Source: an uncultured delta proteobacterium (lineage in GTDB: Bacteria > Desulfobacterota > Desulfobacteria > Desulfobacterales > JAHEIW01). From it: 64,000 bases of DNA. A program made the translations under genes and the position numbers. Position 1 is the first letter of the stretch. The number at the start of each line of letters is the position of its first letter. Positions 8,801 to 16,348 of the stretch are shown here, piece by piece. A model generated the notes under the pieces. It saw only the letters and a list, made by a program, of their open reading frames with translations. It was not told the DNA's origin and searched no databases. The stretch lies in contig CAVPNL010000018.1 of the NCBI GenBank assembly GCA_963706575.1, positions 96,001-160,000 on the forward strand, written 5' to 3'.

Positions 8801-9115
8801 AAAAGTAGAGATTCCATACTCAAAACACAAATTCTGTTTTACCTATTTTTTCATCTCAAAACAGACACCCCACAAAAGCATAATCCCCTTCCAAAAACAC
8901 AGGACAAACTCATGCGACCAACGGATTCAATGTGTGAGAAACCGAGCTCATTAATGTCTCGCATCTCGATATGTATTTGAATACATTATATATCTACTTT
9001 CTAAATATTTTTCGTTTTTTCCAGGTTATGCAAGTTTTGGGGCATTTTTCTCACACCAAGTCTCACACCAACAAAAAAGGGTTACAGTCCTAAGACCATA
9101 ACCCCTTGAATTTTT
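8801..9115. repeat. Island-end module; diverged direct repeat of 15955-16271
   Basis: Shared blocks aaaagtaragattccata, ctgttttac, cgaccwacggattc, tandem TCTCACAC, and a terminator hairpin aagggtta...taaccc. Confidence 0.8.
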
Positions 9116-9160
9116 TGGTACGCCCGGCAGGATTCGAACCTGCGGTCTACGGATTCGAAG
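9116..9160 (-). mobile_element. att site: 45-bp copy of the tRNA-Arg(TCG) 3' half
   Basis: One mismatch to 16272-16316; identity ends at the anticodon loop. Confidence 0.92.
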
Positions 9161-9258
9161 GATACAGGTTCCAAATGTCAGCAGTATGATCTTGTTCCGA
9201 GATCAAGGATAGATCTAATCAAACAGATGGTGTTTTAATGGATAGGTGGACATTACTA

Positions 9259-9600
9259 TTAATCTAAATTCTTTATAATTCGTTTAATTTCTTCTCTAAG
9301 CTTGGGGATATCTTTTTCTACTGTGAGCCACACTGTATCAATATCCACTCCGAAGTAATCGTGAATGAGTTTATCACGCATACCCGCAATGTCCTGCCAA
9401 GGTACTTGAGGCGTTTGGCTCGTCAAATCATCCGTGAGCCTTTTCACCGCTTCGCCTATTATTTCAATCTGCCGAATAACACCATCCTGAACCAGATCAT
9501 TTTTTTTAAAAGTCTCTTCATCAATTCCTTGCATATATTTTTCTATTTTCTTAATTGCATCCAGAATGTGATTCAAAAAGGCGGACTGATCAGTTTTCAT
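9259..9600 (-). CDS. HepT-like (DUF86/HEPN) ribonuclease toxin
   Basis: [27 protein letters not shown] (Rx4HxY). Confidence 0.9.
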
Positions 9601-9895
9601 AAATAACCTTTAATTCGCTTAAAATTCTATCTCGCAAATAAGGGCTTATCGCAGCCTCGGTCAACAAATCAACTTTTTTACCAAGTTCCGTTGATAGTTC
9701 ACGTTCCAGCCTTACGATATCCAAAAGACTTTTTCTTCTAGAAAATTTTACCATTAAATCAATGTCACTTGCCGGTGTATCCTCGCCTCTTGCTACAGAG
9801 CCGAAAACAGCCACCATTGCGGCATCGTTTTCACGGCAAATTTTTATCAACTTATCGATATCGAATGAAAGTGCGTCCATTTTATTTGAATTCAC
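9590..9895 (-). CDS. MNT minimal nucleotidyltransferase antitoxin
   Basis: [17 protein letters not shown] (GSx10DxD); overlaps the toxin start. Confidence 0.9.
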
Positions 9896-10079
9896 CAGTG
9901 GTTATTTTAAATTAATTAGATATTTTATGCTAGCAGCAGATATAATGAAACAATAATATAAATGAAATAAATAATCAAGATTCGGGAAAATGAGCCTTGC
10001 CAGCTCAGGCCGGAAAACGACAAGTCATGTTAGAAACAAAAAAGGATATGGTCCAATGATCATACCCTTTTTGTTTTTC

Positions 10080-10124
10080 TGGTACGCCCGGCAGGATTCG
10101 AACCTGCGGCCTACGGATTCGAAG
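10080..10124 (-). mobile_element. att site: second 45-bp copy of the tRNA-Arg(TCG) 3' half
   Basis: Identical to 16272-16316; adjacent terminator-like hairpin at about 10035-10075. Confidence 0.92.
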
Positions 10125-11372: not shown

Positions 11373-11740
11373 CGCTCTCCTCCGGAAACAGTTAATTATT
11401 ATTAGGCACATAACCAAGCTAATACCATCTTCACATACCCTGTCAATTTCGAATTAACCAAAATTGCATGTATATTGAGATGTTCTGTATAAAAGCGGTT
11501 CCCGCAAAACGTGAGATACTTTTTATCACAAGGTGCATATATCTGTCATATCAGATCGTTACAAACATACTGATTTTCAGATACCGATTGGATTAATGAT
11601 ATCATCATCGATTTTTCTAAAGCAAACACCATTTTCGGGCATTGCAGCGCAATTTGTTTGGAGCAACGCCATGCGATATACAAAATATATTGCATCTTAA
11701 TGAAATGGTGGACACCGAAACAGTATCCACCATAATCGGT

Positions 11741-12578
11741 TTAGGTGTAAAGATTTTCAATCCATTTCATTGCCTCTGTGTCAGTGATCTTGCCCAGGTA
11801 CCTCTGGGTGGTGGACAGGTTCGAATGGCGTAATATGATCTTGCTCACAATCTCAATGGGCACGCCGGAACGCGATGCAAAAGTGGCTGAGTGACGACGT
11901 AAATCATGGGGTCGCAAATGGATACCAACCGCCTGGCCTGCTTTTATCACCATTATCCGCGCAGCTTCGTAGGAAATAGGAAATATGCGGTCATCTGGAT
12001 TCTGACAGACAGATTTGGCATATTCGCGCAATCTTTCCGCCACCTTCACTGGGATAAATACATATTCGTATTCCCGGCCGCTTTTTGGATCTCGCAGTGT
12101 CAGTTTCTGATCATGGATATCGTTCATTGTCAATTTGAGCACCTCTCCGATGCGCATACCTCCCCTGGCCATCAATTCCAGCATCAGACGGTTGCGGGGT
12201 TGTGTAGTGCGAAAAATAACCTCATCGATGGTCTCTTTTTCGATGATGTTCCAGTGTGTGATTTTCGGGGCTTTAAACAGCATTTTCATCATCGGAACAG
12301 CACAGGGGTTTTCAAAGCTCTCATCCAGGTTGGATTTAATGAAGTTGAAAAATGATGAAAGATGCGAGTAGCGGGTTTTTTTCGTCTGCGGTTTTCGGCC
12401 TGCTGTCAGGTGGTTCAAAAATGCCAAAACTTCATCGGTGGTGATTTCATTAAAAGGTCTTTGGCCAAAATCTTTGCAAAATTTGGAAATAATGGCTTCA
12501 TAGGAGCGAAAAGTATTTTTTTTTGGAATTGACCCGATGATACTCTAAACAACATCTACCTGCCTTTGAAAAATTCAT
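11741..12578 (-). CDS. XerD-like tyrosine recombinase, split by a frameshift at an A9 run (12516-12524)
   Basis: Catalytic R (GMRIGE), K, HDLRR, H, Y present; 5' part MNFSKAGRCCLEYHRVNSKK with GGAGG RBS joins the main frame if one A is removed (278 aa). Confidence 0.85.
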
Positions 12579-12922
12579 GATCATACCTCCTTTTGAGTTT
12601 AGGTTAATAAAACATTCCAGCCTGCATTTGAAATTAGGATAACCACAAGATATATGCAACACGGTTGGATCAAAGAAAAACTTCACTCTGGGAGGTCACC
12701 GCATAGTTAGGTTGCCGACAGACTAGGTTGATATCTGTATCCGCCAGTTGAAAACTGAATTGATGATATCACAGGCTTTTTGACTTGATTGGATAATAGG
12801 CATTTGATATTAATTCAAATAATTATAGGTAAACATAGTCTCAATTAATCTGCAATTTTTTAATATTGAGCCCAACCACAACATGTGGCATCCACCAAAG
12901 TTTATGAAATTGAACAATATTT

Positions 12923-14005
12923 ATGAAAAATGTGCCAATGAAGATTGAACAATTCGGTTTCAATAAGTGGTTTCTTGATAGAATTGATCCTACAAAATTA
13001 ATTGATCACCAAATTGCAAGAGTTATTACTGTCAATAAGGATAGTTATACCATCAACAACGGCAAGGGTGATGTATCGGCCGAACTAACTGGTAAACTCA
13101 TGTTCAGCGCTGATTCTCCATTAGATTACCCAGCCACCGGAGATTGGGTAATTGCTCAATATTTTGATAATGATTCCTTTGCCATCATTAGTGAGATTGT
13201 TCCAAGAAAATCTGTATTAAAACGGAAAACATCGGGTAAGAAGATCGAGTTTCAATTAATTGCTACTAATATCGACACTGGCTTAATCGTTCAATCACTT
13301 GACAACAATTATAATCTCAGACGATTAGAACGCTATCTGGTCATGATAAATCAGAGCGATATCCAACCGGTTGTATTATTGAGTAAAAGTGATCTACTTC
13401 CAGTTAGTGAGATAGATAAAAAAGTTGATGAAATTCATGCTCTAATTCCTGACCTTCGAGTATTGCCTTTTAGCAATGAAGACAATACAAAGCTGAAACT
13501 TGTCAAAGAGTTGTTGGCTCCTCGTAAAACTTATTGTTTGCTTGGGTCATCGGGGGTTGGTAAATCTACCTTAATAAATAACCTTCTGGATGAAGTGCGA
13601 CTTAAAACCCATAACGTTAGAGAAAAAGACGGAAAAGGAAGACATATAACGACATGCCGTCATTTGATAAAATTAAAAAATGGGGCAATGATCATTGATA
13701 CGCCAGGTATGCGAGAACTCGGAAATTTTGCGATTGATACTGGTATTCATGGCACATTTGATGAAATTACAGAACTTTCAAATCAATGCCGCTATAATGA
13801 TTGTACCCATACACAAGAGCAAGGCTGTTCAATATTGGCTGCGTTAAAAGACGGAATAATTTCTCAGGAACGTTATCAAAATTTTGTTAAATTAAATAAT
13901 GAATCTGCTTTTTATGAAATGTCATATATAGAGAAAAAGCGAAAAGATAAAAAGTTTGGGAAATTGGTTAAATCTGTAATGAAAGAAAAAAAACACAGAA
14001 GGTAG
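12923..14005 (+). CDS. rsgA: Ribosome small subunit-dependent GTPase A
   Basis: Circularly permuted GTPase: SKSD, GSSGVGKS, GRHITT, DTPG, CRYNDCTH...GC zinc motif. Confidence 0.93.
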   Translation: MKNVPMKIEQFGFNKWFLDRIDPTKLIDHQIARVITVNKDSYTINNGKGDVSAELTGKLMFSADSPLDYPATGDWVIAQYFDNDSFAIISEIVPRKSVLKRKTSGKKIEFQLIATNIDTGLIVQSLDNNYNLRRLERYLVMINQSDIQPVVLLSKSDLLPVSEIDKKVDEIHALIPDLRVLPFSNEDNTKLKLVKELLAPRKTYCLLGSSGVGKSTLINNLLDEVRLKTHNVREKDGKGRHITTCRHLIKLKNGAMIIDTPGMRELGNFAIDTGIHGTFDEITELSNQCRYNDCTHTQEQGCSILAALKDGIISQERYQNFVKLNNESAFYEMSYIEKKRKDKKFGKLVKSVMKEKKHRR

Positions 14006-14428: not shown

Positions 14429-14701
14429 CTGATGCAATATATATCTTTGTTTTACAAAATACGCGAAATAATGAATATCTGTAGTATTGGTTGAATAAAT
14501 GTATGTTGGAGATAACACCACTGGCTCTTAAAGACTTATGCCAGAAATCTCCAATCTAATTCAAAAGTGATTATACTACATCTTGTGGTGTGACCTATTT
14601 GGCGGATTGGGATATCTTCGAGTGCTAATCCACATACAGATATGGATTTAAACCACAAATTATAAGGCTGGTATCCGTGTTGCGCTATGTTGGTATCTAA
14701 A

Positions 14702-14775
14702 TACTAACACCAGTTTAAGCCGCAAATATTGCCGCTTCGCGGCGATATTTGTCGGTCTTGAAACATTTGTTAGCT
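14702..14775 (-). mobile_element. Integron attC site
   Basis: Minus strand AGCTAAC-AAATG-TTTCAAGA...long central stem...CTTAAAC-TGGT-GTTAGTA; the R'' box overlaps the gene's TAA stop. Confidence 0.85.
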
Positions 14776-15408
14776 TTCGCTTTTTTGGGCGACTACAGTA
14801 ATCCAGTTTTTTCCAGGTAGACTATTTATTTTTTCTATCTGATATCCTGCTTCAGACAGAAAATCTTTGTATTCATCCGGTGTATGAATCTTCATATCAA
14901 GTAGATTGACCAATTTACTATTTCGTTTTTCAAACTGATCATTTTTATATGATGCATTAACTAATAAAAGAAATGCTCCTGGTTTTAATACACGTTTTAC
15001 CTCTATTAAATCATTAATTAAGTCAGGCCAAAAATAATATGTTTCAAATGCCGTTACAAAATCAAACATGTTATCTGGAAATGGTAAAGACGAAACAATG
15101 CCATACATTATTTCAACAATGCTCTGTTTTATCAGGTTATCATTTACCTTTTTTGATAATTGAACCATATCCTCAGAATAATCAATTCCGTAGACCTTTC
15201 CTTTTGATACAGATGAAGCTATCTCTTTAACGGCCTTTCCTCCACCACAACCTATATCAAGAACACATGAATCCGGTTTGATGGAAATATGACTAAGTCC
15301 CCACTGCCTAACTTTAGTATGCCCGAAATTCATAGATCTTCCGACAAATCTACCAAAACGACCTGAAGGTTTTCTACATTGCATTACAAATTTTTTAAAC
15401 AATCCCAT
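14770..15408 (-). CDS. Class I SAM-dependent methyltransferase (gene cassette)
   Basis: VLDIGCGGG, GIDYS, RVLKPG; flanked by GTTAGCT upstream and attC downstream. Confidence 0.92.
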   Translation of the reverse strand: MGLFKKFVMQCRKPSGRFGRFVGRSMNFGHTKVRQWGLSHISIKPDSCVLDIGCGGGKAVKEIASSVSKGKVYGIDYSEDMVQLSKKVNDNLIKQSIVEIMYGIVSSLPFPDNMFDFVTAFETYYFWPDLINDLIEVKRVLKPGAFLLLVNASYKNDQFEKRNSKLVNLLDMKIHTPDEYKDFLSEAGYQIEKINSLPGKNWITVVAQKSES

Positions 15409-15954
15409 GATTTACTCCATTAATTGTATAAGCTAACCAGTTATCATATTGAACTGTATATCATCAAATTGGGGATGTTATACAGAAAATGATTATTGGA
15501 GCGGACTTGAGATACATTGATATGGCTTAGCGAAATCTACAGATATCAAATCCGATCTGTACATATCAATCTTCGAAGAAGCACTGCATGTACCAATTTT
15601 TAACGAATATGCTGAACAAGATGTTGTGGTTGTATAATATCTATTGATTAGAAGACTACGCTAATAAGTCTCTATTTTGGGAAATACAGGTATATTGAGA
15701 TGAGCACATGAATCAGCTCCTCTTAAAAGCATGTGATATACAACGATCTGAAATTCCCTGATAATCACAGATACCATCATTCACCTGTACCTATCAACTT
15801 TTTATTAGTGCAGATCCCCATTCGATATCTTGACAATGATTGAGATTGGATCATGTAATCTATTCTTTCCCAAAATTCAGATCGATCCCCATATATTGCG
15901 GTTGCTGTAGACGTTATCAGAGTTTACATGTCGTGCCTATAGATAAACATTTGC

Positions 15955-16271
15955 AAAAGTAAAGATTCCATATTCAAATCAAAAATCCTGTTTTACTCAT
16001 TTTTCTTTCCACCAGACGTTCGCCCTACGAAAGCAAAAAAACCTTTGATTAAATCAGGGATAGCTCAGACGACCTACGGATTCTTCGATTTAGTGCTCAA
16101 GCTTATTACCTTTTTCGCATTTCATATATATTTGAATTTACATAATATCTTATTCTTACAGTCATTTCGATTTATCCGGTTTTATACAAATCTTAGATAT
16201 TTTTCTCACACAGAGTCTCACATAAACAAAAAAAGGGTTACAGCATTTTCGCTATAACCCTTTGATTTTAC
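15955..16271. repeat. Island-end module with terminator downstream of tRNA-Arg
   Basis: Diverged copy of 8801-9115; hairpin aaagggtta...taaccctttg. Confidence 0.8.

Positions 16272-16348
<77 letters not shown>

Follow-up and report, generated by a model that had tools for sequence, protein, structure and literature searches.

How does a complete integron gene cassette come to lie in a tRNA island with no integron integrase beside it? The origin of lone cassettes is debated: four routes are set out in Cury 2016 (PMC4889954), and insertion at secondary attG sites is favored in the accessible text of Loot et al. Tests have been difficult, since for most integrons the attI sequence is unknown. 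In the parts of 10.1101/2022.09.11.507474 at hand, 3400 SALINs are counted in 2469 of 21,105 genomes. Here, we analyze a solitary cassette in a 64-kb stretch (the window) of the genome of an uncultured delta proteobacterium. By definition it is a SALIN, with a single attC and no intI nearby. We consider it probable that this SALIN is a relict attI together with its first cassette, which lost its intI and was carried into the island as cargo.

The cassette is read on the minus strand (Table 1). Its attC site (74 bp, 14702-14775) extends from R'' AGCTAAC (14769-14775), which includes the TAA stop of a 212-aa open reading frame (14770-15408), to R' GTTAGTA (14702-14708), and the 5' core GTTAGCT, matching the complement of R'' at 7 of 7 positions, sits 12 nt 5' of the GGAG ribosome-binding site; the chance expectation for this 7-mer in a 60-nt stretch is 0.0008. 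These coordinates had been given correctly by the preliminary description. The cassette proper covers 14708-15436 (729 bp), while the span 14702-15437 takes in both core sites. The bottom strand of the attC folds at -21.3 kcal/mol; its R and L boxes pair, three single bases (T, T and G) bulge out, and 0 of 200 shuffles reach this stability (z -6.67). Three extrahelical bases are typical of attC sites.

Table 1. Features of the cassette locus and its surroundings in the window.
Feature	Coordinates	Strand	Basis or remark
tRNA-Arg 3' end copy and terminator, far boundary of the 6.2-kb island	10037..10124	-	repeat family D1
Island tyrosine recombinase, XerA-like	11741..12427	-	TIGR02249 36.6 bits vs 265; NF040815 98.7 vs 220
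Recurrent boundary motif, at which the attI-cassette segment ends on the left in other samples	14502..14553	.	matches L102, L208, L213
attC site, 74 bp	14702..14775	-	crossover after G 14708; folding bottom strand is the + strand
Predicted class I SAM-dependent methyltransferase, 212 aa	14770..15408	-	33% GC; Pfam Methyltransf_11 72 bits
RBS GGAG, within the cassette	15415..15418	-	sequence
5' core GTTAGCT	15431..15437	-	crossover G/TT at 15437; exact complement of R''
attI-family site, left half	15438..15495	-	family shared with sites 218-801 bp upstream of divergent long intI
AT-rich segment	15503..15701	-	two mobile-element end-like motifs near 15522 and 15701; no intI remnant
tRNA-Arg(TCG) gene, target of island integration	16272..16348	-	3' end repeated at 10037 and 9073

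A strict attC scan returned two matches in the 5.67-Mb genome, with 14702-14775 the best, and none in each of six shuffled genomes. As an Rfam search left the attC unmatched, we built two covariance models of our own, distinct from that of IntegronFinder, from attC sites of other loci (R1, 14 sequences; R2, 58 sequences). With R1 the site ranks first in the window (22.6 bits, E 0.0064), and with R2 it is the sole match at E<=3 (23.9 bits, E 0.0039), in both cases with exact ends; the scores are moderate, and the training sites were chosen with a scan that 14702-14775 also passes, so the matches are support rather than proof. Together, these data confirm 14702-14775 as the canonical attC of a real integron gene cassette. 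A second attC is absent from the 64-kb window, where R2 run unfiltered gave one match. Six base pairs past the attC, the stretch 14670-14701 holds TACCAAC, a near-complement of R' that is perhaps the remnant of a deleted second cassette; it is unscored by R1 and R2.

The cassette itself is ordinary. The methyltransferase gene has a dN/dS of 0.13-0.34 against seven homologues; none of the 25 NCBIfam models listed for it reaches its cut-off, and the resistance families stay below theirs (NpmA 32 vs 60; ArsM 50 vs 263). Its PDB matches are generic only (best E 2.8e-14), PADLOC gave two matches, the best of them mad2 at 64 bits with part of the profile covered, and all plasmid matches are below 60% identity. 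The methyltransferase is thus conserved and fits no resistance family, leaving a resistance role unsupported. Contigs of the RNA run X15 cover 14708-15154, although contigs cannot demonstrate transcription.

Is the cassette mobile? Of 367 relatives confirmed in the genome search, 80 were kept; the closest of these, at 87-94% identity, stem from different phyla and lie at different loci. A core matching the homologue's own R'' is present in 6 of 16 homologues with upstream DNA (18 homologues at >=63% identity), and a clear attC follows directly 3' of the stop in L014 and L020, the latter being in the training set of R1; our simple attC scan overlooked several homologue attCs that could be seen by eye. 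Beyond R'' the sequence varies among homologue copies. Homology breaks at exactly 15437 in a 92% homologue (L012), at 15436 in L015 and at 15438 in L018, and contigs of the X15 RNA library break at 14708, where one starts exactly, and at 15437, with unlike sequence beyond. These junctions identify 15431-15437 as the attI/attC crossover and the methyltransferase gene as, by all indications, a mobile cassette. Both the home-built models, which score the attC, and the homologues, which have cassette-type cores and in two cases an attC, bear out the proposal of a solitary integrated cassette, whose crossover the breakpoints fix.

Where, then, is the integrase? In agreement with the preliminary description, the 64-kb window contains no intI, and no intI-like tblastn match lies near the cassette. 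The island recombinase at 11741-12427 was ruled out as an integron integrase (36.6 bits against the TIGR02249 cut-off of 265), and an intI pseudogene between 13900 and 16500 was likewise rejected (best E 0.48). Nor does an intI match lie near any of the 80 homologue loci, within flanks of at most 5 kb per side and often less. The search of the whole assembly gave a best score of 85 bits against the same cut-off; with 25 contigs and a completeness of 91.8%, intI may be unassembled. The integron could accordingly be intact but split, its intI residing in an unassembled or rearranged part of the genome and still serving the site, a possibility that gains from this incompleteness and from the finding of intI over cut-off in 5 of 21 same-genus genomes (12 of 41 genomes in the relatives search; 65 of 121 in the order). 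We nonetheless regard it as very improbable: the contig is 208 kb long and its nearer end is about 97 kb away from the cassette, the three attI families described below would require three missing integrases, and those intI of the genus that have an assignable attI have C- or D-type attI. Loss of intI is seen in relatives, in which intI stubs adjoin attI at L334 and L340, first codons only are left at L147 and L146, and nothing at L338, apparently a decay series of intI beside attI. At the window locus, which is free of intI remnants, we infer the loss rather than see it.

The target of the insertion had been proposed to be either a secondary GTT or a relict attI, and our data favor the latter. 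Sequence upstream of the crossover is common to the homologues L011 and, more distantly, L020, and to DNA upstream of intI at L130; a wider upstream pattern derived from these gave 57 metagenome sites. In 22 of the 57, one common 75-bp left half is followed after G/TT by 22 different right halves, and one left half with many right halves after G/TT is the behavior of an attI. Among the 25 sites with at least 1 kb of upstream sequence, eight lie 218-801 bp from a divergent long intI, whose best match is in every case the L130 type (L130 and L148 are further intI-linked family members), and 17 have none, five of which are chance-like by eye. The loci judged by eye to be chance (L152, L168, L176, L203, L191, L196 and L177) were dropped, together with L158, from the site list for a matrix, and they and L158 remain within the counts of 57 and 25.

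The matrix, built from eight distinct intI-linked sites, places the window junction first in the genome at 19.4 bits; L011, which retains only 21 bp of attI, scores 2.7 bits. In a neutral test we compared the 40 bases before the 5' core, without gaps, with 761 GTT anchors taken from 59 regions upstream of intI; the window reached 26/40, a level attained by 7 of 4000 AT-rich GTT control sites. Because the pattern that yielded most of the A-type intI-linked sites also covered the window site, both the matrix rank and the neutral test are partly circular for the window, and positions outside the pattern were therefore tested. At positions -60..-22, 21 of 39 bases match the intI-linked site L174 without gaps, a level reached by 2e-4 of genome 39-mers, with several references having been compared. 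This match argues that 15438-15495 is an attI-family site and not a bare GTT. Judged by its sequence, the site belongs to an attI family that holds many different first cassettes, and its recombination function is putative. The locus works like the first position of an integron, although it is not a complete integron, as no intI lies beside the attI.

Three results weigh against this assignment. L202, L198 and L151, which resemble the full 55 bp most closely, have no intI within 1.5-2.5 kb; a search of 24 family relatives, allowing two mismatches, gave no second good match to the window attI type; and a search for a sigma-70-like consensus promoter on the minus strand of 15438-16140 found none. 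By sequence reading, the site contains a 12-bp inverted repeat (15454-15465 / 15474-15485, 8-bp spacer), partly retained in related sites, which possibly represents accessory IntI boxes whose orientation is inverted, not direct. An earlier, narrow upstream pattern was dropped: it matched 10 of 301 genomes of the order, in coding or chance-like sequence apart from this genome, and gave five control matches. The sites L141 and L142 were considered as DnaA boxes, an idea given up since GTT cores come next, plus an attC at L142.

Could IntI instead have inserted the cassette at a secondary site (attG, consensus GWT) that resembles attI by chance or through AT-richness? Insertion at attG is efficient in E. 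coli and has been proposed as the origin of SALINs, according to the passages available of 10.1101/2022.09.11.507474, which also describe attG sites as differing broadly from attI. Two of our observations are in its favor: the L012 copy of the cassette occupies a non-attI GTT (-44 bits on the attI matrix; 18/40 match), and 11 of 17 testable attC loci in relatives lack an attI match. Against these stand the in-register homology of the window site over about 55 bp with intI-linked sites and its left half, common to L011, L158 and, more distantly, L020. For the window we therefore hold insertion at attG to be highly unlikely, and the best reading of the sequence is that the unit is an attI-anchored relict.

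The surroundings of the unit bear on how it reached its present position. The cassette lies, as the preliminary description had it, inside a tRNA island, which measures 6.2 kb and has a GC content of 36%, the genome as a whole having 48%. The tRNA-Arg 3' end occurs three times (9073, 10037 and 16229; third copy 9073-9160) and marks tandem islands, and housekeeping neighbors in the window include selB and rnf-like genes. The second, small tRNA-Arg island (9073-10124) contains a HepT/MntA-like toxin-antitoxin pair (9259-9895). Within the low-GC island, the recombinase and a short upstream open reading frame fragment (62 aa, no Pfam match) occupy 11741-12686, inverted 21-bp repeats lie at 11460 and 12839, and an RsgA-family GTPase is encoded at 12923-14005. 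A 250-bp segment (15688-15938) is repeated in relatives and marks element ends. In the three relatives (of ten) with more than 4 kb of flank, the tRNA-Arg locus has neither intI nor attC.

The same attI and cassette recur elsewhere. Runs X1 and X3 contain the window attI allele and the same cassette, flanked differently at 14502 and at 15671-15693; flanks switch at 15671-15700 in L158 and in X1 and X3, and loose contig ends accumulate at 14502-14507 and 14550-14553 in runs X1, X3, X10 and X15. In L011 the window attI allele and cassette, trimmed at both ends, lie between ahcY-like and NAD-kinase-like genes (named from sequence), and L158 has a near-identical attI and cassette start with other upstream DNA. 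This recurrence with other flanks in L011, L158, X1 and X3 makes arrival as cargo more likely than insertion at a chance site, so that the proposed insertion of the cassette into the island holds for its location and probably not for its manner. No clean empty counterpart of the L011 insertion was found; at that place G007 has about 124 bp of other DNA. The gap between ahcY and the NAD kinase gene is an insertion hotspot, ranging from about 120 bp to 12 kb among L011 and same-genus genomes. In L158 an insertion that starts with a perfect hairpin interrupts the gene about 38 codons in.

The history that we favor would run as follows. An integrase of the long IntI type, common in this sulfate-reducer lineage, would have inserted a circular methyltransferase cassette at its own attI, by an attC x attI crossover at G/TT (15437) that the anatomy shows and whose enzyme we infer. 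The intI and promoter region would later have been lost or removed, probably at the point where the attI now borders on mobile-element ends. The leftover attI of about 55-60 bp and its first cassette would since ride passively in a segment of about 1.2 kb, here in a tRNA-Arg island. Without IntI the cassette would be frozen. In principle, an IntI arriving from outside could excise it or insert a cassette at the attI.

Is this locus the only one of its kind? The suggested search of the genome for intI and related attC sites yielded no intI and at least six further attC sites at five other loci (R1/R2; 150 candidates scored per run, the window's own site unlisted). At three of these the sequence before the core matches attI at 29/40 (C4:357843(-)), 29/40 (C6:433046(-)) and 27/40 (C1:176500(+)), levels reached by 1, 1 and 2 of 4000 controls, and the families matched are others (L126; L119/L120), taken from an independent intI search. 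The C8 cassette (C8:287856(+), C8:288630) follows an L126-type palindrome, an attI match is absent at C6:866286, and at C4:215929(+) a degenerate attI-like site precedes a gene without attC. Among the attC loci listed, five of six thus appear to lie in attI-like sites of three families, four by test and one by eye. In relatives, where 137 attC matches gave 20 regions and 23 attC sites that were compared without gaps with a small library of attI types, the 17 attC sites with a findable core comprised three strong attI matches, two weak ones (p 0.019), one by eye (L324) and 11 without a match. A cassette with an aldo-keto-reductase-like gene (C4:356684) lies in a B-type attI here and apparently, by eye, in a D-type attI in the relative L324; its name, like the gene-family names of the other cassettes of this genome, was read from sequence and not library-assigned.

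A dispersed end motif finishing in CTCAAT is present in 28 copies in this genome at E<=0.01 (contigs C1, C2, C4, C8 and C12). The copies mark element ends, many of them clustered in island-like regions, and the motif lies 28-456 bp upstream of four of six attI-like sites in the same orientation; its look-alike in the window was recognized by eye only. A profile HMM of the window's element ends had no match at the other attI loci and a second HMM had none in the window, so that for the window the link is by eye.

Do these solo attI sites then form a working system of dispersed capture? Short attI units would be scattered over the chromosome, either through excision at secondary sites by IntI or through the recombinase modules of islands, and an IntI encoded elsewhere or passing through would load them in trans. 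The distribution just described, over three families of sites trimmed to 40-60 bp and without intI remnants, and the shared end motif speak for such a system, as does the presence of intI in more than half of the genomes of the order. In G399, moreover, one attI is present in two copies that both lack intI and are followed by different first genes, while intI lies on other contigs. Two related attI copies lie in tandem, 1.6-2.4 kb apart, in L162/L163 and in L199, with no intI in the flanking DNA examined, and in L179 and L170 a 167-bp attI-bearing fragment, starting at GTT after an attC or another attI family, lies inside cassette arrays as if the attI itself were cassette cargo. Yet every contig that bridges the crossover with the window allele (L011, L158, X1, X3 and X10) has the same cassette, and no turnover is therefore seen. 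At C8 the core appears by eye to be mutated, and C4:215929 has lost its attC. The left ends are ragged, so a unit starting at a fixed GTT is unsupported. Joints of a cassette circle or of an empty site were not seen in the contigs of four runs, which is a weak test. The 28 end motifs cluster in islands anyway, and their model missed the window's own copy. On balance we think such a system unlikely. The same doubt attaches to its generalization as modular integrons, in which 40-60-bp attI docks of several families near tyrosine-recombinase ends would provide one-gene slots loaded in trans; should it apply, many database SALINs would be live satellite platforms and neither attG accidents nor dead relics.

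Under our preferred reading of a relict attI with its first cassette, a lone cassette can be what is left of an integron platform and need not be a random insertion. With attI families taken from intI-linked sites, the majority of the lone cassettes in one genome, and a part of those in relatives, can be placed in attI. Scoring the upstream sequence for attI offers a simple test that could be applied to the SALINs on record, which number in the thousands, and yields candidate attI/IntI pairs.

How does the locus compare with known systems? As in the SALINs of 10.1101/2022.09.11.507474, it has one CDS and one attC, with no other attC and no intI nearby; the definition given in that text specifies no other att site nearby and attG is proposed there, whereas here the cassette lies in an attI-family site. 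Of the routes to CALINs in the accessible text of PMC4889954, (iii) loss of intI and (iv) separation by rearrangement fit here, and the lack of an intI pseudogene nearby is shared with 95% of CALINs; the differences are that only one attC is present and that the attI is identified, attI having been left unsearched there and being unknown for most integrons. The Xanthomonas integrons with deleted or truncated intI, as presented in the text at hand (10.1101/2025.06.18.660453), likewise have a platform frozen by integrase loss, although theirs is ancestral and downstream of ilvD and here unrelated attI families are scattered over islands. In the Delta-attI-type cassettes of class 1 and 2 integrons, displaced attI or fragments are reported in the available passages of PMC12901181 to still recombine; those pieces are downstream ends of cassettes in mobile arrays, in contrast to the upstream attI of normal geometry without integrase seen here. 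In marine sediments rich in Deltaproteobacteria (Elsaied et al. 2011, PMC3146285), the main text describes diverse attI beside intI, most without attI1-like direct repeats; all were amplified next to intI, unlike the intI-less window site, whose family may already be among the 30 in the attI alignment of that paper. We found no report of attI-anchored SALINs in the main-text passages of the mostly open literature searched. Measured against the parts of these sources at hand, the SALIN class, the routes to CALINs and the decay of integrases were known already, and what the present locus adds is the identification of its attI and the recurrence of such attI-anchored cassettes across families in one genome.
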